This document shows, one piece after another, positions 16,039 to 59,064 of a stretch of DNA of 64,000 bases. A model generated the notes under the pieces. It saw only the letters and a list, made by a program, of their open reading frames with translations, made no database searches and was not told the origin of the DNA. A program made the position numbers and the translations under genes. Position 1 is the first letter of the stretch. Each line of letters opens with the position of its first letter. Source of the DNA: Lytechinus pictus (Eukaryota); the NCBI RefSeq assembly GCF_037042905.1, contig NC_087245.1, positions 24,430,001 through 24,494,000 of the forward strand, read 5' to 3'.

Positions 16039-16605
16039 AGGTTCAAAGGCAATTTTATATTGAAAATTGAGCCAAATTCGCCCCGCCCACAAAAATTCAG
16101 CCCGATTTGGTTTCGTATATCACGTGACCATTATGACGTCAGGGAAGGAAGCTGCTGAGTGTTGTTGACGTTTGGAGCGTGAAGTGTTGTGGTTGCATGT
16201 GTGGATTCAAAGTAAATAAATAAGGTTGTGTGCTCTTTGTGATTTGTATCTTTGTGATCGATGACGATGCTGCAGCCATGATCAAAACTTCGTAAAAATC
16301 TAAAAAAATATGTTAAGGATGAGCTCGGTCGAAACAGCAACTACACAAAAAACATGTACAATAACTAGGGGTCCGGCTGCACAGCTGAGAAAGCCTTCCT
16401 TCAATGACGTCACAATGATTGACAGGTCGATCGGCCGACTTTTTCGAAAATTTTAGTGGGCGTTCCCGTTGAAGTTCATTTCCATGGAATAACTCAACAC
16501 CGGTTCGTCGTACTCAGAAACCGATGGCAAATTCATATTTTTCAAGTAAAACTACCTAATAATAGATATGTATCTAGAATAAGATGGCCTTTGTGTCTTA
16601 GAACC
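16039..16605. mobile_element. Probable MITE
   Basis: imperfect TIR AGGTTCAAAGGCA / TGTCTTAGAACCT|TTAA; CpG-rich with ATGACGTCA sites; left TSD not evident. Confidence 0.4.
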
Positions 16606-16943
16606 TTTAAAGCGCTATCCAAAGCCTTAAAAGAAGATTGACCCAGATAATCCATTCTCATTAAGAGGCCTTTGAAATAGCTTATATTATATGAACAAAG
16701 AAAATGTTAGCCAAAACTGCACAAATAAAAAGTGTTGTTTGGCTTCATGCTGATTGGAAATACAAGGATTTAATAGTCTTCTGGATATTTCAGAAGTTTG
16801 GAAATACTTATGGATTTTTCTTTTTTGGTGACATTATTATTATGTGTTGAAGGCATGTAGTCACTAGAGGGTGCTATTGCAGAAGTGCACAAAATGTCTA
16901 CTGAGCATTTCGTTCACATACCCATGCATTATACTGCAATATT

Positions 16944-19900
16944 GGGTCAAAACCACTATCTCGGCGCAATTGCGTCAAATTCGTGTCCCGCATGTTATGG
17001 GTCCAATTAAAAATAAAATCGATATAGAATGGTCGAGTTAAGCTATTCTATTTATTATATGAGATCCATTCTTTAAAAAGAAAGTCATATTATTGACCTT
17101 CTTTTGGTATATAATGAGAAATTAGCAAACCCATCCGTTGTAATAGTGAAAAACAGCGTGTCGCCGGTCATATATTTTCTAAATTTCTGTATCTTGCCAA
17201 AATAAAGTAAAAAGCAACTGCCCTAAAACTAAATTAATATGCATATAAGTGATCCCTCCACAAAATACAATCAAAAGTTTTTGATAAAAATGTTTTGTTT
17301 TCACATGCGGATAAAACCAAATGTGTCGCCAAATATAGTGAAACTTACGTTACCGTATTTTAGATCAATAATTAATTACTTTTTGTCATCGTAAATATGT
17401 TTATTTTTATTTATTTGACACCTCGGGTATATGATAAGAAATGATACTTATGTACTCCCATTCCTAAGTAAGAATAATCTTATCAAAACCAAACTAAATG
17501 CAATTTATAGAAACGTAGCGTTAAGAGATGAAACTTACGTTACCGTTTTGGGGTAATGTGTATAGACCTTAGATGCTGATATGTATATCAGCAGTTAGCA
17601 TTGATAAAAGGAAAGTCAGAGGGCCAACGAAATCATACTTGCAAAGAGCAATTTTGGATCAGCAACTATTTATTTACCCCATCATGTAATTTACGTTATG
17701 AAACTTACGTTACTGTATATGCAGACCTCGGCCTTTTTGGCGTTAAAAGAATTTTTCTCGATATATAACAAAGATGAGCCATCTACGATCATTCTCAGAA
17801 AGCCTAGCAACAACTTTTTCAAGTCTATGGTGGATCTCGTCCCATTTTTCTAATCCCTTGCATCAGAGGCTGACTAGTAAGTATTCAATTTCATCAAATT
17901 TTTTAAAGGTTCTACTCCCCTAAATATTTGAGTGTATTTTAGGTGCAACCATTAGTCAAGGGCTTCTTAAGAAGTGCTAGAAAATCAAACAAAAGTTTAA
18001 GAATGTGAAATTACTCTTCAATCAATTTTTTATACCTTGATAGCTAGTAATAATAATGTAACGTACGTTTCAACTCTAGTAACGTATGTTTCAAAATAGA
18101 AGTTGTCCCATACATAGATGATATAAGGGGATTTAATCTTGCTAATCGTAACTTTATGTTTATAATAAGCTAGTACTACATTCAATTTCATTACCAGTGG
18201 AATTTCGGGAACAAAAAAAAAGAAAAAAGTACAATTACTATCACTTCAAGCATTGTTTATGTTCCGTTCAACTTTTATTTTCATGAAATATTTAAAGATA
18301 AAACTAGCCCTTTAAAAGATTCGGTATTTTGTTACACTGTCTATACCTTTCTTACATTAATACTTGCCAATATTAATAAGATCTCTCTCAATTGGTTGAA
18401 TTAAGGTACATAACAAAGTTCATATGCTAATATTTTATCCACCTCATTATAGTAACGTAGGTTTCAAATTATAATAACGTAGGTTTCAGGATTTGGTACC
18501 GAGTTTTGAATACTAGTTAAGATTTTTCCCAATCCCATGATCAAATTTTATTTTTCGCAATATAAAGGAGGGGCGTATATCGGTTTATCGAATGTATTAT
18601 TGTTGATTTCCTTCCCTCAAATTTCTTGTATATATATCAATTTTATATAATTGCCTTCTTAAAAAAATAAATATATATATATACCTTAATATTTTTGTAA
18701 TGAAAGAGAAAAAACTATAAATAGCAGTATAAGGCATATTTGTGTAAAGAAGTTGTTGATATCAATTGATAAACGCGACACCTTTTAATAAGATTTGGAA
18801 TATAATAATGGCATTTCCCCTGCCCAAAATGGTAACGTATGTTTCAAGATTTCATAATTGAAAACATAACATACAATATAACCTTTCTCTTTTTATTTTC
18901 CCTAAAGGAATGGCTAGGAGCAGGGCTGAAATTCAGGCTGCTTACAGGCAAAGGAAGCGGCAAAAGATGGGGGAAAATGCTTACTTACAAGCGGAGAGGC
19001 AGAGGGTGAAAAAATACTACAAACCGGTGGATACGCTCACAAAGAAGAGGGTCCAAGAGAGAAGAACGCAAGTAAATAGAAGAGTACGAAAGCATAGAGA
19101 TCGAGTTCGTCGGGTAAGACAGGAAATGGAACAAAGAAGAAACATGAACATAGATGACGTCGGATACACTGCGGATGACGATTCTGCTATCTCGGACATA
19201 TCCCCTGACATATCTAACCAGTTAGGCCTTACTATCAAAATGCCATTCCAAAAGCCAAGAAGAAAACGAGTGAGTAGGTGTTTGAGCAAGGCTCATAGAA
19301 ACATTGAACAGCTCACACTGAAACTACAGGCGGCAAAGAAAGACAAGACAAGACTAAAGAAAAGGTGTGAGAGGCTGCAGAATAAAGTCATGACTTCAAT
19401 GCCAACAAGAAAAGAAGTTAAGAATACACCGCGATCCCGTACAAACTCTCAGCTAGAAGATGAAGGAATAGATCCAAGCCGTGTTCCTTCAATCAGAAAA
19501 CGATTGTTATTCTCCAATGCAATGATGGAAGAGATTCAAGGTTCTTCTAACACAAGCAGAAAGATGTCTGATCGCCGGATTCTTCACCAGCTGGTAGCTG
19601 GATCAAAGGTTCTGAAGAAATACCGCCTATTAAAGTTGCTCCGGACGGAAACTGGATTGGGGAAACGTAACCTTTCGAAGGCAAACAAACATACCAAATC
19701 AACTCAACAATCACGACCAACCTGGACTTCTCTCCATCTGGAAGTAGTAGAATTTCTGCACAGAGATGATGTATCACGTATGTGTCCGGGAAAAAAGGAT
19801 TCAAGCAAGGGCAAAGACGGAACCAAGTGTCAGAAGAGGTATTTGACTGATTATCTGTCTAATCTTCATGAAAGGTATCTGGCAGAGACCGATGGGAAAA

Positions 19901-22900
19901 GAAAGATATCATTGTCAGCATTCAACCGCGTGCGACGAACCCTATGTCCTCACATTAAGCCTGTCCAGTTCGCCTCGAGAGATCTTTGCCTTTGTCAAAA
20001 GCATCAGAATGTTGCATTGAAGCTCAAAGCACTACAATCACTAGGGGGAACTGTAAATGACAACCCAGATGAGTTCATTAAAGAACATAATGAAGCTCAG
20101 GTAGATATTCTCCTCAACAACTTGCAGTCAGAGCAGATCCAATTTGATGAGTGGTCAAGGGTTGAGGTAGATGGGAGAAAGAAAATCAAAATCATCCGCA
20201 TATCTCAAAGTAAACCTGACTTTATCAAGCGCTTTCAGAAGGAGATCCAAGAATTCAGGCAACATGTTGTCAGAATCAAAAACCAATTCAGAGCTTTGCT
20301 AGATTGCAAGAATTCTTTGAAGCCAGATGAGTGCATTATCCAGATGGATTTTGCCGAAAATTATGTCTGTGTTCCACTTGAAGAGGTCCAAAGCGCCTAC
20401 TGGTGTCAGGATGGGGTGACACTTCACCCAATTGTCGTGTACTTCCGCAACGACGGGAATGAACTAGTTCATCAAAGTTTTGCAGCTGTGTCTGATGACA
20501 GAAATCACAACACTTCCACAATACTGGCAATACTCACCAAGCTCATGCCAAAGCTCAAAGAGCTGATACCCCATCTCCATAAGGTTCACTACTGGACCGA
20601 CAGTCCTACATCGCAATATAGGAACAAAACAATGTTTTCGTTGGTGAGTGAGCATGCTGATATCTTCGACGGCATACATGCTCAATGGAACTATTTCGAG
20701 AGTGGCCACGGGAAGGGTCCGTGCGATGGGATCGGGGGTACCATCAAACGTCTTGCAGACACTGCAGTGAAGAGACGGGCAGCAGTTATCCAAGATGCCT
20801 ACGACTTTTTCGCCTGGGCCTCACAAGAACGCCACGAATGCTCAGGTTCAAAGATCAACTTCTTCTTTGTAGCCAAGGGAGATTGTGCTGCAGGAAGTCT
20901 TCTCATTGCGGAGAGGTGGTCCAGTGTGAAAACCTTTCCTGGGACAATGCAGATGCACGCAGTGATTGGCCATGACAATGGAGTTCTTCTCAGAAAGTTG
21001 TCCTGCTACTGTCAAAGCTGCTATGGCAGTCGGGAAGAAGGCCAAGTTGAAACGATGTGCGAAGGGTGGAAACACAATCGTCTCCTTTATCGATCGACTA
21101 CCATGTCAACAACAGGTGCTTCTGTTACACCACAGAGTCCAAGCAACACAAGCATGTCTGAAAATGATGAGTCCTCACCAACAACCAACGAAGCGTCCTC
21201 GGGTACATATGGTGTTGACGACTGGGTTGCTGCAGTTTATGATAAGCAGTGGTACATTGGCAAAGTCCTCAAATTTGACTCTTCTGATATTCATATTGAC
21301 TTCATGGCAAAATGTTCTGGTACCCATACAGGGGGGAAATACAAATGGCCTGTAAAAAAAGATGCAATATGGGTGGCATGGGACAAAGTGTTGTGTCACA
21401 TTACACCATGCTTTTGTGATACTTCTCAAAGAATTGTCACTTTATCTCCAGAGCAGAAAGCTCTGATCGAAGAAGCCTTCAAGGCCGTTGTCTGACTTCA
21501 TAGATCTTTACTGGAATGATTCAAAAGGGGTTTTAATTTTTATGGGTTAATTGATTAATTGATTTCCATATAAATCATTGGCCATATGTTTATTGTAAGA
21601 GCTATAAGAAATTAATATCACACATGCAAAACTAGAGTTAGGCCTATGTGATTAAGTTGTAGGGATATCAGATTGATCTGCTTCCAGTCTTAGGGAATTA
21701 ATATTCAAGCATAAATAATTGATATGTGAGTTATCTTCAACTCCCTATTATGTTCCTCATCATATCATGGGGGGTTAATTTCTTCTTGTTTTTCATCTTG
21801 TGTCTACTTACTGCAATCTCCCTTTTCCTCATTTCATCTCTCTCTTTCAACATTAGGTTTTATGGTTCATCCACAATTTCAAATCTTAAATGTTAGCTGA
21901 GTTAAAATAATTGTTTTACATTGTCAGATATTGAAGTTAAAATACGTTACTCTTTTTAAAATAATTTTATTACAAATTTTCGCTATGTAAACGTAATCAA
22001 AATTTGCTAACAGAAAATGGGGAATTGATATAAAAGTCATCGGGAAAATAAAGGTAACCACGTTTTGATGATCAATCACATTTCCATATGTTTGACGTAC
22101 AGTTGATCTATAAGTGTTATAGTTTATTCACAATTTCAAATTGGTGTTATAGTTCTTTCACACTTTCAGTATTTCATACCTTGGTAAAGTTCAAAAAGAC
22201 AAATTGTTAAATTTTAAAGTTGCAATTTCTTGGCACATTGGTGTTATATTTCATCCAAGCTAGCAGATTTTTAATGTTAGTTGTGGTAGGACAATTGTTT
22301 AGCATTGTCAGATATTAAAGTAACATACGTTACTATTTTCAAAGTAACTTTATTTCTACTTTTCACTCTTTACATTTAATTAAAATTGCAAACAGAACGA
22401 GGGAGTTGATATAAATACCATTATCTGAAAACACAACTGACCCCGCGTTTTGATTATCACTCACACTTCCACACGTCTGGCACTTTACATTTGAATATAA
22501 AATGCCCATATTCTGAGCACCGTGTAATCTAAATTTCCCGTGGATTAAAACCATTTTGTGATAATAGTTGGGTCCATTTTGTTTCATGATATTATTTGAG
22601 AATGTAACCAATCAACTTTCAGTTATTTTCGTGCATACAATTCTAAACCTTCGTAGTTATTTTCAGATTTTTAGAACATGTAATTTACGTTACCTTTCAT
22701 GAAACCTACGTTACCATATTTAATGAGACAATTACATATTACATGCTGCCCGTTCGTTGAATTTGATGAACATCCTGTAAACTTAATCATTACATGACTT
22801 TATAAATGTTTAAATCTTACCTTTATCTTTCAGATTTATTGTTCGAAGTAAAAAGATACGATTCGTGATTTTGACAGTCAAATTTCTTTATAGAAATTAA

Positions 22901-23273
22901 TGTTTTCAAACTTCAATTCCCCTCAGTGGTTTTCGCAATCAAACTCAAGGGAAGTAATAGACCATTATCGTACAATTTTTGGCACCAAATTGATTATTTC
23001 AGAAGTGGCAAATTAGTTCTACTCAATAGAAATAGATTTCACCACGACTATTAAAGGTGTAATGCTCTGTAACGTAGGTTTCACACTGAATTATACATGT
23101 CATTACGAAAACGTGAAAATTTAGTCAATCAGCAAAATTCAAAAGCCAATAATCAACGGATATTAACTTGACAATACATGCATTCTTTTCATAATAAAAT
23201 GATATGTGTTGAACAAAGTTTATTTTTCTGATTTGTTGAGTTTCCAATTGCGCCGAGATAGTGGTTTTGACCC
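16944..23273 (+). mobile_element. Full-length, apparently autonomous DNA transposon, Sola2-like
   Basis: perfect 29-bp TIR GGGTCAAAACCACTATCTCGGCGCAATTG (16944-16972 / 23245-23273); 4-bp TSD TATT (16940-16943 / 23274-23277); GRG termini with a 4-bp TSD match Sola2; intact ORF inside. Confidence 0.9.
18910..21495 (+). CDS. 861-aa DDD transposase (Sola2-like)
   Basis: uninterrupted ORF; QMDFAENY (D480), WTDSPTSQYRNK (D564), WNYFESGHGKGPCDGIGG (D606); Cys/His clusters CPGKKD, CLCQKH, CYCQSC; basic/coiled-coil N-terminus; aromatic beta-barrel-like C-terminus. Family call is from recalled motifs, not a search. Confidence 0.85.
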   Translation: MARSRAEIQAAYRQRKRQKMGENAYLQAERQRVKKYYKPVDTLTKKRVQERRTQVNRRVRKHRDRVRRVRQEMEQRRNMNIDDVGYTADDDSAISDISPDISNQLGLTIKMPFQKPRRKRVSRCLSKAHRNIEQLTLKLQAAKKDKTRLKKRCERLQNKVMTSMPTRKEVKNTPRSRTNSQLEDEGIDPSRVPSIRKRLLFSNAMMEEIQGSSNTSRKMSDRRILHQLVAGSKVLKKYRLLKLLRTETGLGKRNLSKANKHTKSTQQSRPTWTSLHLEVVEFLHRDDVSRMCPGKKDSSKGKDGTKCQKRYLTDYLSNLHERYLAETDGKRKISLSAFNRVRRTLCPHIKPVQFASRDLCLCQKHQNVALKLKALQSLGGTVNDNPDEFIKEHNEAQVDILLNNLQSEQIQFDEWSRVEVDGRKKIKIIRISQSKPDFIKRFQKEIQEFRQHVVRIKNQFRALLDCKNSLKPDECIIQMDFAENYVCVPLEEVQSAYWCQDGVTLHPIVVYFRNDGNELVHQSFAAVSDDRNHNTSTILAILTKLMPKLKELIPHLHKVHYWTDSPTSQYRNKTMFSLVSEHADIFDGIHAQWNYFESGHGKGPCDGIGGTIKRLADTAVKRRAAVIQDAYDFFAWASQERHECSGSKINFFFVAKGDCAAGSLLIAERWSSVKTFPGTMQMHAVIGHDNGVLLRKLSCYCQSCYGSREEGQVETMCEGWKHNRLLYRSTTMSTTGASVTPQSPSNTSMSENDESSPTTNEASSGTYGVDDWVAAVYDKQWYIGKVLKFDSSDIHIDFMAKCSGTHTGGKYKWPVKKDAIWVAWDKVLCHITPCFCDTSQRIVTLSPEQKALIEEAFKAVV

Positions 23274-24075
23274 TATTGCTGTTATTTCTGTAGCAGTGTG
23301 GATGAATGTTATATTTCTCCCCTCTGTATCATGACAATGGCAGCATCAAATTCAGCCGAATTTATGGTGGTTTTTATTTTAAACATACTGTATGGGTCCC
23401 AACTTTAAAGGAATTCACTCTTAATATTAAAGCCCAATAGTGTCCGTGAAAAAAAAATTGTTTGCTGAATTCTTGGATAATTTGTTTTTGTTGTTGTTGT
23501 TGAAAAGAACCATAGTATCATTGAAACTTAAGTTGTTGATGTATCGATGTGGGATTTTTAAATACTGTGCAGAGCATTTCTGTGAGGGCCAAGTGAAGCC
23601 ATAGAAATAGGCTTGCACAATGAATTTCAAGATGCTTGCGTCAGTTGTAATTCAAGCCCGTAGCCAGGGAGTTTGGGGGGGGGTCCTATCGAACTCCCTA
23701 ACAATTACAAAAGCAAGGGAAAAAATGGAGAAAAGGGAGAAGGGAAAAGATGGAATCAAACCCCATAATTGATAACCCTGTCCGTGCTCCTGTAATTTAT
23801 GGATATTTTTTGGCTAACCACTGATAAATTCGTTGGAAAGCTTATTGACCAGCACAGCTCATGATCAAATGATGCCACAAAAAATGTATTGAATCTTTGT
23901 ATAACCTAGTACATTTATAAACACTATTAAATTCATTTCAGTTGATCTATTGTATGTTATATGGTTTCATCCTTGTATAACCTGTTGAATAAAAAAAAAA
24001 TCAGGCCGTCTCTCTTTTCATCCATGCTGCATTTTATAGCCTAGACAAGGAAATTAACAGGAGTCCCTAGTTTAA

Positions 24076-32959: not shown

Positions 32960-33930
32960 TTAATAACATAAATCCAAGAATCTTGTGTTCCAATCCATCT
33001 GACTTTAATTTACCCATTGCATACTGGAACCGGGTGGTCCTTGTAAAAGTACAAGGGAGTTACAGAACTTGTTAGATGATTGGTATACAGTTTATGAATC
33101 ACACTGTAAGTAACAGTAACCATTCACTTGACAAAAAAAGCAGCCCCCCACCCCCCCCCCCCTTGTTGATGCACCATGCTATATCAAAGTCACGGTGATA
33201 AGAACCTCCACTGCAACATTACCATCCTTTTTCCCCTGAAGTTTGATGAAAGATCAAAGTGGTGTTGCTCAAGTGCTCATTTCCAAAGTTGTGCAGAATC
33301 TTATACCTGCATGTCAGACCAAAAGGCTATCAAAAAAGAAAACATAGAATTTCAAACAAAATTGTTTTTTCAGCCTCAGAAATGAATGATTATTTCTGCT
33401 GTTGCTAATCAATATTAATTATTTTGCACACTGTATTTGCCCCAAAACATAGAAATGCATATCAGTAATTTATGACACACTACATATTAAATTATTTTCA
33501 TATAATAATTTGTATAGTAGATTTTCCAAGAAGTCCAGGGAGAGCTTCTGGACCCCAAATCAGATTATTCAAACATTTATTTATCGATTGAAAATATCTG
33601 TCTTCATACATTATAAATTAGCATAATCAATGATATCACACCATTATGTGCTAGTTATTCTATCAACTTGTACATTGATTTCAGTACTCCCCAACTTATG
33701 AGGAGCATTTCATGAGGATTGTTGTAGGTGATTTTCACTGACATTTAAAGCTATTGTAGATCCTTTCATCTAATTGGTAGAGAGCTAATGAGTGAACATC
33801 ATCATCGAAACTCTTCATTAAGTGCTCTCAGGATTCTTTTATTCCCGTAGCCCGAACCACAGGAACTACCAGGTGTCTATAACAAATGAGTTAATGGCTG
33901 TTTTTTCTTGTTTTGCTCATTTTCTCCAAG

Positions 33931-35177
33931 GTTCCAAGAGAGCAACACCTATAACCATAACCCCACACGCCGGTAGCTCGAGTGCAGAACCTTCCACCTA
34001 CATGTTGATGAACCCATCGGCCAATCGTCCTTCACCGTCCAACAGCCCCGGCTTAGCCTGGGCTCCTGCACCCATGTCCATCTCGCCCATTGGAGGTGGA
34101 GGTGCCTTCACTACTACAAACTCCTTGGGAAAGAAGTCCCCTGACAAAAAGCACAGGAACTCTGCAGGACCGCAGGACGACGACCTGCTCAAGATCACTT
34201 CATCCGCTCATCAGAGGTCACACAGTGAACCGGTGGTCGATACCTATTGCAATATGGAGTTTGAAGCAAAGCGTGGCCAAGTCTCGCATAGAGCATGCGA
34301 GAACAACAACATTGATAAGAAGGATGCCACCCAGAGGCATAGCATGCCGGCGAAGGAACCAAGGTATATAAATGTGAATTATGAGGAGAAGAATGAACAT
34401 GTGGATAGTAGTGTACAGGTAACGGTTGATGCCCCAGACTGTATAGAAGGAAATGCCATGGTTAGGAACATTGTTGATAGTACTGATGAAGGTCTTGATG
34501 TTGTCAAGAATGGATCGACGGACAGCGGCCTAAATGGGGAGTACATGAACATGAGTTTTGGGAAGGGTAGGAATGGTCCTAAAGGTGTGACTGATCTGAG
34601 CAAGAGGCAGGTTCCCCCCTTGCTCATAGATCCGATTACTCACTCTAACCCGGACAGTCATGATTACATCAATGTCCAAACAGAAACTCGGGAGACCGGT
34701 ATGAAGTCGAGTCCCCGTCACTCCCCCGTCAGCCCACCGTCCCCTTCGTGGTTGCGAAGACCGGTTGCTGAGCAACTCTTGAGGAAGTCGCTGGAAGACT
34801 TATCCTTCTCGCAGCTCAGCAGCATCCCGTCCAGAGGTAGTGCCAACTCTCTCACAGGGGTCGGAAATAACAATCGAAACAGCGACACCATTAGCCCCGG
34901 TGCGCTGTCCTCGCATCACTCGTCACGACGTTCCAGCCAGTCATCGCTGAGCGGTGAAAAGGAATTGAACTATGTCGATGTTGACATTGGACAACCTGCT
35001 CCTGACAAATCTGGTAGTTCCACACCAGCTTTGCGGGAGAAACGATCACGATCCCCCTTCAGACGTATCCCCAATGAGGATAAGAATTGCGATCAAGTCA
35101 ATTATTCCACCATCGATTTCACAAAATCCGAAGGATTGAGAAATGTAACAAGCAACTTACGAGATGCTCGCTACTAA
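33931..35177 (+). CDS. IRS: IRS-like terminal coding exon
   Basis: ttctccaag|GT acceptor (phase 1) to TAA; YMLM, YCNM, YMNM (PI3K), 2x YINV (Grb2-type), LNYVDVD and VNYSTIDF (SHP2-type, cf. IRS1 LNYIDLD / YASISF). Confidence 0.9.
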
Positions 35178-57704: not shown

Positions 57705-59064
57705 TTTTTATGCCCCCGCAGACGAAGTCCGGAGGGGGCATTAAGTGTTGCCCCTGTCCGTCCGTCCGCCCCCCACTTGGTTTCCGCGCAATAACTCGAA
57801 AAATATTGAATGGATTTTGAAAAGGTTTAGTGTGTCGGTAGATGACACCAAAATACAGGCCAAGTTCAAATTCCGAGTCCGGAGGTCAAAGATCAAAGGT
57901 CACAGCTCATTAAATATGCGAGTTGGTTTCCGCGCAATAACTCGAAAAATATTTAATGGATTTTAGAAATTGTTTGGTGTGTATATAGTACTAGGTAAAT
58001 GACACCAAAATACAGGCTAAGTTCGAATTTCGAGTCCGGAGGTCATAGGTCAAAGCTCATTAAATATGCAAGTTGGTTTCCGCGCAATAACTCGAAAAAT
58101 ATTTAATGGATTTTAAAGATTTGACGCCAAAATACAAGCTAAGTCCGAATTTGGAGTCCGCAGGTCAAATGTCACAGCTCATTAAATATGCGAGTTGGTT
58201 TCCGCGCAATAACTCGAAAAATATTTAATGGATTTTAAAAATTGTTTGGTGCGTAGGCCTATATAGTGCTAGGTAAATGACACCAAAATACAGGCTAAGT
58301 TCGAATTTCGAGTCCGGAGGTCATAGGTCAAAGCTCATTAAATATGCAAGTTGGTTTCCGCGCAATAACTCGAAAAATATTTAATGGATTTTAAAAATTG
58401 TTTGGTGCGTAGGCCTATATAGTGCTAGGTAAATGACACCAAAATACAGGCTAAGTTCGAATTTCGAGTCCGGAGGTCATAGGTCAAAGCTCATTAAATA
58501 TGCAAGTTGGTTTCCGCGCAATAACTCGAAAAATATTTAATGGATTTTAAAGATTTGACGCCAAAATACAAGCTAAGTTCGAATTTGGAGTCCGCAGGTC
58601 AAAGGTAACAGCTCATTAAATATGCGAGTTGGTTTCCGCGCAATAACTCGAAAAATATTTAATGGATTTTATTTTTTTATTTTTTTTGGTGTGTAGGTAG
58701 ATGACACCAAAATACAGGCTAATTTTAAATTCGGAGTCCGCAGGTCAAAGGTTACAGCTCATCAAATATGCAAGTTGGTTCCCGCGCAATAACTCAAAAG
58801 ATATTTAATGGATTTTAAAAAACTTTGGTGTGTAGGTAGATGATACCAAAATACAGGCTAAGTTCGAATTCGGAGTCCGCAGGTAAAAGGTCAAAGGTCA
58901 CTGCTTATTATATATGCGAGTTGGTTCAAAGGTCTAAATTTTTCATTATAGGTATGCATATTGGTTTCTGCTCGATATTAAGTTCAGTCATAGAAATATT
59001 GAATGAATTTCTGATCATGTTAAGCGGGGGCATCTGTGTCCTTTGGACACGTCAAATTTCTAGT
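57705..59064 (+). mobile_element. Non-autonomous Helentron/Helitron2 (DINE-1/HINE-like) with central tandem array
   Basis: 5' T-run + subTIR ATGCCCCCGC (57710-57719) with a nearby inverted copy, (GTCC)n, 3' subTIR GCGGGGGCAT (59024-59033), hairpin GTGTCC-TTT-GGACAC, CTAG|TTT end. Confidence 0.85.
57777..58926 (+). repeat. Tandem array, 8 units of 122-156 bp
   Basis: units start TTGGTTTCCGCGCAATAACTCGAAAA at 57777, 57923, 58073, 58195, 58351, 58507, 58629, 58775 (stub at 58921). Confidence 0.95.

Follow-up and report, generated by a model that had tools for sequence, protein, structure and literature searches.

A stepwise lattice of short motifs along the arms of a Sola2 transposon from Lytechinus pictus, and its possible basis in nucleosomes

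Introduction

How transposon ends that lie kilobases apart inside chromatin are paired is poorly understood; work on Tc1-like elements of the inverted repeat/direct repeat (IR/DR) group shows that chromatin matters, without giving a geometry. The question is raised by a 6,330-bp Sola2 DNA transposon with one long open reading frame (ORF), which occupies positions 16944-23273 of a 64,000-nucleotide stretch of Lytechinus pictus DNA (NCBI RefSeq assembly GCF_037042905.1, contig NC_087245.1, positions 24,430,001 to 24,494,000 of the forward strand), hereafter the window. An initial annotation, made from the letters alone, had described a 14-bp motif repeated along both arms and proposed a chromatin-templated array of transposase-binding sites serving end pairing or autoregulation. 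We find that the lattice is a real, strongly conserved feature; if the reading developed below is right, the pairing geometry of Sola2 would be legible in sequence and hence directly testable.

Two motifs form a lattice in both arms

The repeated motif, box A, is GAAACNTACGTTAC, with 14 copies in the element, two of them degenerate (21937 and 17686). A scan for GAAACHTACGTTAC at up to two mismatches returned 12 matches in the window, and each of them lies within 16944-23273; shuffles predict 1.21 (at most 5 in any one; 0/100 shuffles reach 12). Every site in the initial annotation is present, the one at 21937 being real but carrying three mismatches; that list was incomplete, having missed the box A at 17686 and all three copies of a second motif, box B (TGTCSC in this element). 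The sites are as follows.

16984..16990, + strand: box B copy 1, TGTCCCG, 41 bp from the left end (at 40-41 bp in 7/7 own-genome families)
17159..17165, + strand: box B copy 2, TGTCGCC, 216 bp from the left end (at 214-216 bp in 7/7)
17324..17330, + strand: box B copy 3, TGTCGCC, 381 bp from the left end and 24 bp before the box A1 core, a composite site (at 378-383 bp in 7/7)
17340..17353, + strand: box A1, core 405 bp from the left end
17530..17543, + strand: box A2, +190 from A1
17686..17699, + strand: box A3, degenerate, first of a head-to-tail doublet (recognized 14 bp before 17700)
17700..17713, + strand: box A4, second of the head-to-tail doublet
18058..18092, - strand: reverse box A doublet, 18058 and 18079, 21 bp apart
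18452..18487, - strand: reverse box A doublet, 18452 and 18474, 22 bp apart
18832..18845, - strand: reverse box A, 65 bp before the start codon
21937..21950, + strand: degenerate box A with three mismatches (TTAAAATACGTTAC)
22320..22333, + strand: box A, near-palindromic
22680..22714, + strand: box A doublet, 22680 and 22701, 21 bp apart
23069..23082, - strand: outermost right box A, core 200 bp from the right end
23216..23228, - strand: AT-rich motif, AAAAATRAAGT-like, about 45-58 bp from the right end (by eye, 5/7 families)

Core-to-core gaps between box A copies are 190, 156, 14, 354, 21, 373, 22 and 358 bp in the left arm and 383, 360, 21 and 364 bp in the right, and the doublet gaps of 21, 22 and 21 bp bear out the proposed spacing of 21-22 bp. 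When sites less than 60 bp apart are merged into stations, these lie at about 41, 216, 393, 595, 758, 1130, 1524 and 1893 bp from the left end and at 200, 575, 945 and 1328 bp from the right end. A scan of periods from 120 to 300 bp against random placement gave a best period of 186 bp, with p=0.016 for the six box-A stations and p=0.0003 for eight stations including box B. The steps of one and two units that had been claimed are therefore found, with a unit nearer 181-186 bp (the lower figure from the families described below) than the proposed 190 bp.

The arms are inversely symmetric only with an offset of about three units, the extra units being on the left end: sites lie 354, 375, 748, 770 and 1128 bp inward from the left site at 765, and 364, 385, 745 and 1128 bp inward from the right site at 200. 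As a general rule, exact mirror symmetry was rejected. The arms otherwise share only short boxes, and the spacers are non-repetitive, as first described, except for one decayed tandem duplication in the right arm:

21850..22479, + strand: decayed tandem duplication, offset 385 bp, with one box A per copy (21850-22094 against 22235-22479, 249 bp at 73%)

A duplicated two-unit block of this kind is the probable source of new stations. On the right end, the AT-rich motif sits at about the distance that box B copy 1 has on the left, and a different terminal box may serve the right end.

Distances are kept while spacer sequence is lost

Comparison of the focal family with six others from the same genome, whose transposases are 37-58% identical to it, showed that positions are held closely. 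Box A1 lies at 401-407 bp and box A2 a further 190 to 192 bp inward in 7/7 families, the head-to-tail doublet ends at 765-777 bp, and reverse sites follow 335-378 bp further inward; the last box A is 192-211 bp from the right end in the 6/7 families where that end is defined. Box B (TGTC[GCT]C, once GGTCGC) fills 21/21 slots at 40-41, 214-216 and 378-383 bp when the seven families are stacked from the left end, over a background of 0.2 per 400 bp. Spacers are far less conserved than the motifs, which answers the question of whether the two are equally conserved: alignment of the A1-A2 spacer gave z against shuffles of -1.1 to 2.7 in 21/21 family pairs, that of the A4-A5 spacer up to 4.0, and end-adjacent segments are weakly similar (z up to 8.4). 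The A1-A2 interval offers a clean natural example in which selection acts on length and nothing else: the spacers are unrelated, yet about 190 bp is held to within 3 bp. In family H (L025:8075) and a gene-less relative (L125-L135), the outermost right site is inverted with respect to the other six families, with the 192 bp kept.

A metagenome contig scan yielded 80 loci; 64 were analysed and, with the seven own families, gave 54 clusters at <80% DNA identity, of which 33 with a clear motif were kept and 21 dropped (motif finding failed or flanks were too short). The spacing peak in related families, set beforehand as a test, is sharp: among 165 station gaps below 700 bp in the 33 families, 81 average 181±12 bp and 78 average 364±20 bp, a ratio of 2.0. 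Inside the two bands lie 159/165 gaps, with none at 260-319 bp and six outside (133, 217, 255, 256, 465 and 660), against a mean of 50 and a maximum of 71 under random placement, a null that overstates the significance because the families are kin, with gaps that are not independent, and the bands were drawn after the data; that sites were picked with own-family matrices detracts from the comparison as well. With the shared outer gaps removed, 50/54 still fall within the bands. Neither this test nor the comparison of spacers with motifs refuted the initial reading. A count anchored on box B, which is independent of spacing, places the next box A at 187-194 bp in 20/21 families (exception 204); three rows were dropped (anchor inside a neighbouring box A), 12 families have no anchor, and the count replaces a circular 24-family interval count that had been selected at 185-193 bp. 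The composite box B-box A site is present in 21/33 families. The midpoint of a double gap is filled in some families (178+168, 178+190), and one distant clade is without the step of about 340 bp and has 19-22 bp there instead. More distant lineages of the genome (26-30% identity) have their own motifs, in steps of 162-197 and 367-428 bp.

Could the spacing be a neutral relic of old 190/380-bp tandem duplications? The 385-bp duplication of the right arm speaks for such an origin, as do similar decayed duplications in other families. Against it, motifs are intact where spacers can no longer be aligned, both within the element and between families, and motif positions and single-unit lengths are protected. 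As the sole cause the relic is refuted on these grounds, and the explanation as a whole is extremely improbable.

Two observations concern distant loci. In the right arms of distant Sola2 elements (L032:6990-8865 and L034:7969-9153), inverted motif pairs 26-27 bp apart recur every 370-400 bp. Just outside the latter element, at L034:748-1660 (locus reverse strand), are seven near-palindromic GTTGCCATGGYAAC-like sites, mostly about 150 bp apart, which we take to resemble the RFX X-box; this row may be another element with its own lattice.

Gene-less copies keep their stations

Copies that have lost the gene retain long arms. Pairs of focal-family terminal inverted repeats (TIRs) found by pattern span at least 3.8 kb in 12/12 cases, with one more at 3.77 kb, and in deleted focal copies of 3.8-4.7 kb the gene is gone and both arms are kept. 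From 86 family-H TIR matches, 20 places were fetched, comprising 10 complete gene-less copies, six partial, interrupted or other-end matches and four unrelated ones; in all 10 complete copies, 3.05-3.76 kb long, the stations of the left arm are in place along with the outer two on the right. Comparison of family H with the gene-less relative showed differences at 4/112 motif positions and 335/1603 spacer positions, and single-unit spacers contain two one-base indels in 685 bp, double-unit spacers 11 in 720 bp. Some of this divergence may go back to an autonomous ancestor. Young derivatives of the focal family pull the other way, their motifs being unprotected: changes affect 7, 7 and 18 of 140 motif positions, against 3-4% of the spacer.

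The fixed distance from the termini and the retention without a gene together suggest that the stations are probably needed in cis for transposition. If so, this would explain why gene-less copies measure 3-4.7 kb rather than being miniature. Of the two functions first offered, end pairing is preferred to autoregulation, since copies that lack the gene retain their outer stations.

The autoregulatory alternative is an anti-silencing or promoter-repressing array, in which transposase coats the arms to keep them open or to repress the promoter, nucleosomes are phased as against a barrier, and pairing is secondary. Family-specific motifs that change with the protein, like the targets of VANC (PMC5735166), fit this idea, as do the last left box A, 65 bp before the ATG, and the sparse RNA over the element (depth 0-5.5). 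Such an array would have no use for base-pair-level distances from the termini (401-407 and 192-211 bp), and it sits poorly with a right arm downstream of the gene and with stations retained in gene-less copies; we regard it as distinctly unlikely.

One gene-less family (L125-L138), about 3.75 kb long and probably of tens of copies, has arms 75-79% identical to those of family H, and no closer autonomous partner than family H occurs among the protein matches examined.

Candidate proteins for the boxes

Box A variants are uniform within a family and group on the transposase tree. Among the 33 families, the own-family matrix scores best for 184/311 box A sites and is in the top three for 284/311, figures that count as support and not as proof, given that sites were chosen with own-family matrices and kin share labels. 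In the lineage L031 (about 28% identity), the candidate right TIR contains the lattice motif. Because the change is concerted at 4-13 dispersed sites in unrelated context, an element-encoded binding protein is the simplest cause, and box A is very probably bound by the element's own transposase. The earlier proposal of transposase-binding sites is to that extent indirectly supported, through a family-specific motif that changes at all sites together, binding itself being what we infer from that pattern.

Host factors would be the other candidates, for instance of bZIP or RFX type for box A (consensus presumed), binding the boxes and phasing nucleosomes or driving germline expression. They find some encouragement in the ACGT core of box A in the focal clade and in a box B that is almost constant in all families, which makes a host factor more plausible for box B. 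For the lattice as a whole they are improbable: at least four box A versions occur in closely related families of one genome and more in distant ones, CGGGAC, CGTGAC or CTGTTAC replaces the core CGTTAC at all sites of some clades, and exact genome-wide box A matches are few (127, against 21 for a reversed control), those listed lying mostly in these elements.

Transposase domains

The predicted structure of the transposase consists of basic helices, a coiled coil (aa 118-162), a winged-helix-like region (aa 264-360), an RNase H-like DDD core (aa 460-650) and an SH3-like barrel of Tudor/PWWP type (aa 765-850). The catalytic-triad positions D480, D564 and D606 are invariant in 60/60 aligned rows, and the core compares with Mos1 at Z 9.4 (rmsd 3.4, 165 residues). 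For aa 165-410, structure comparison retrieved winged-helix folds with Z up to 6.4 only, and Foldseek returned nothing at E<=0.001.

The C-terminal barrel compares with BAH, Tudor, PWWP and chromo-barrel folds at Z 6.5-7.8, including the PHF19 Tudor domain (Z 7.4, rmsd 1.9, 53 residues) and DIM2 (Z 7.8, rmsd 2.2, 78 residues). Profile matches to Agenet/Tudor are weak (E 0.17-1.6 only), and a search of the ESM Atlas with aa 765-861 found only unnamed eukaryotic clusters. Conserved aromatics (Y777 in 45/45, Y782 in 41/47, F798 in 43/48) are assigned, by analogy with Tudor/Royal-family readers, to a putative aromatic cage. From this model, histone binding by the barrel is a tentative suggestion.

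A possible nucleosomal unit and its alternatives

Steps of one and two units, filled midpoints and a floor near 150 bp point to a particle of fixed size, for which the nucleosome is the obvious candidate, and we lean towards a nucleosome as the lattice unit. This leaning, the assignment of box A to the transposase and the need in cis are not mutually independent judgements. The mouse embryonic stem (ES) cell nucleosome repeat, for comparison, is 186-189 bp (PMC12961432).

We hypothesize that box A, and perhaps box B, would be the docking site of the element's own transposase, with stations forming a ladder down each arm in steps of one (about 181 bp) or two (about 364 bp) nucleosomes. Transposase subunits bound at the stations would fix the positions of the nucleosomes in between and touch one another across them, and these contacts would fold and pair both ends, with cutting restricted to elements that are correctly assembled. 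The C-terminal Tudor-like barrel might grip histone tails. That transposase sites are needed in cis for end pairing and are spaced by one or two nucleosomes seems to us, from the sequence evidence, an evenly balanced proposition. The fuller version, in which the Sola2 cutting complex assembles on chromatin and one transposase both reads a family-specific box and grips histones along a nucleosome ruler of 1-2 kb per arm, falls somewhat short of even. Were it true, these transposon ends would be defined by a nucleosome array and not by naked repeats.

Several observations weigh against this scheme. Bulk nucleosome repeats in sea urchin are 218 bp at gastrula and 240 bp in sperm (PMC12961432) and about 250 bp in ovary (10.1101/2025.05.12.653534), not 181; if nucleosomes are involved, the bound protein would set the spacing, which would not be copied from host chromatin. 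An AA/TT signal at 10-10.5 bp in the spacers (p 0.003-0.08) does not exceed other periods, 13.5 and 16 being as strong, and the phase-free 10-bp ratio of the spacers, 1.17±0.13, is not above that of host DNA, 1.06±0.03. The shortest single gaps, 150-157 bp core to core and one of 120 bp, leave less than 147 bp free, the tightest about 135-142 bp. First inner gaps on the left and right agree within 10 bp in only 7/17 families with both arms. The barrel fold is shared with retroviral integrase C-terminal domains, and a Z under 8 may reflect a common arrangement. The chromatin-templated part of the initial annotation accordingly draws on the one- and two-unit steps and the Tudor-like domain, and is opposed by the bulk repeat length and by a 10-bp signal that is not clear.

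Some of the same observations would suit a spacing set by the protein-DNA complex itself, with loops or wraps of about 17-18 helical turns round a transposase oligomer, perhaps helped by a bending protein, and no nucleosome. The departure from bulk repeat length and the unclear 10-bp signal agree with it, as do an A1-A2 distance nearly fixed at 190 bp in loci from many samples, doublets 21-22 bp apart and the use by Sleeping Beauty of HMGB1 bending between its two sites (PMC7827188). A loop should permit lengths 10 bp apart, yet 20/21 intervals after box B fall within the single range of 187-194 bp; the exact one- and two-unit steps, the midpoints skipped or filled and the floor of about 150 bp point instead to a fixed-size particle, and an arm of 1.5-2 kb would be chromatinised in the nucleus anyway. 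We therefore judge a complex-set spacing unlikely, although it is the most serious rival to the nucleosomal unit.

Identity and surroundings of the element

The boundaries and the gene are as follows.

16940..16943, no strand: left target site duplication, TATT, 4 bp
16944..16972, + strand: left TIR, 29 bp, perfect
18910..21495, + strand: Sola2 transposase ORF, 861 aa (ORF, alignments and predicted structure)
23245..23273, - strand: right TIR, 29 bp
23274..23277, no strand: right target site duplication, TATT

By its sequence the element is a member of Sola2, which it resembles in the DDD transposase motif blocks (PMC3627910), short TIRs, a 4-bp AT-rich duplication and a protein of about 860-890 aa. 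Blocks shared, by eye, with the published Sola2 alignment (PMC3627910, supplement S10) are SRxxPGKKD, QKR, CxCxxHxN, DFAENY, EVQSAYW, DxPxxQYRN and HGKGPCDGIGG. The 29-bp TIR falls inside the range of 11-1124 bp given in PMC10741241. A 4-bp duplication is found in 6/6 families with both ends defined, further copies agreeing; the duplications are AT-rich and mostly not strict AWWT (TATT, TATA, GGTA, TGCT). Termini are GGG in the focal element and families F and H, and GGC in families B, C and E. A 5'-GRG terminus is a putative Sola2 criterion.

The closest database protein is 100% identical and labelled Lytechinus pictus, and relatives are labelled sea cucumber, sea urchin, lancelet and bivalve. 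The genome holds eight copies of the focal family at about 99% DNA identity, some interrupted, besides several internally deleted ones. Seven copies in the focal family have intact transposases that are 99-100% identical, so that an active element is likely to be available for assays. For the whole transposase and for its C-terminal part, Pfam returned nothing above cut-off; Rfam gave no match across the element, and the viral contigs scanned no relative.

Three RNA runs, about 6% of each being read, placed 88, 121 and 101 reads with the flanks included (depth over the element as above), and no transcript start or end was discernible at this sampling. Over 16944-23273 (runs X16-X18), the first mate is nearly always on the + strand in arms and ORF alike, at low depth, which under most stranded chemistries would indicate transcripts antisense to the transposase. 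Immediately to the left of the element, another repeat (16444-16612) has far more reads, with the first mate mostly on the - strand. Elsewhere in the window, a 451-aa ORF (33822-35177, + strand) gave no Pfam family above cut-off, and 57837-58891 is a tandem array of mixed 122-, 146- and 156-bp units.

Comparison with known systems

Internal sites for element proteins are already known from IR/DR Tc1-like elements, from CACTA elements with TNPA and from VANC; we did not find a kilobase-scale stepwise lattice described for Sola. The Sola2 literature found describes neither a spacing of internal motifs nor a C-terminal Tudor-like barrel; the founding account (Bao et al. 2009) and Repbase Reports lay outside the search, and either could hold an earlier note on these repeats.

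In the IR/DR group (Sleeping Beauty, Frog Prince, Minos), each end has two transposase sites within about 220 bp, all four are required, and condensed chromatin raises transposition, which has been read as the joining of inner and outer sites (PMC7827188, PMC3680223); the word nucleosome does not occur in PMC3680223. Those sites lie inside long inverted repeats, two per end, whereas Sola2 here has 4-9 stations reaching 1-2 kb into unique DNA, with unequal ends, two motif types and gaps of one and two units. A TIR of 29 bp, set against TIRs of more than 200 bp with two direct-repeat sites, places the element outside the IR/DR group, though the two may work alike.

CACTA elements have subterminal repeats that cluster near the ends. 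In En/Spm they consist of repeated motifs, specific to the family and present in either orientation, which work in cis and are believed to evolve along with the protein that binds them (PMC2613891). They are bound by a separate protein, TNPA, and the available part of that account gives no fixed long-range spacing. The GGG termini, 4-bp duplication and single long ORF of our element exclude it from CACTA, which has CACTA termini, a 3-bp duplication and a second DNA-binding gene. In the VANDAL elements of Arabidopsis, the element-encoded VANC protein and its target motifs likewise evolve together (PMC5735166); VANC is a separate gene and its targets are often tandem repeats that vary between families, whereas the geometry of Sola2 is fixed.

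By analogy, the nearest parallel for a protein of transposase type acting on a ruler of two nucleosomes is the CENP-B box of alpha-satellite DNA, where a site for a protein related to pogo transposase recurs every 338-342 bp with positioned nucleosomes on both sides (PMC4410388). CENP-B is a domesticated host protein acting on homogeneous tandem repeats, whereas the Sola2 transposon keeps its distances between spacers that are unrelated in sequence.

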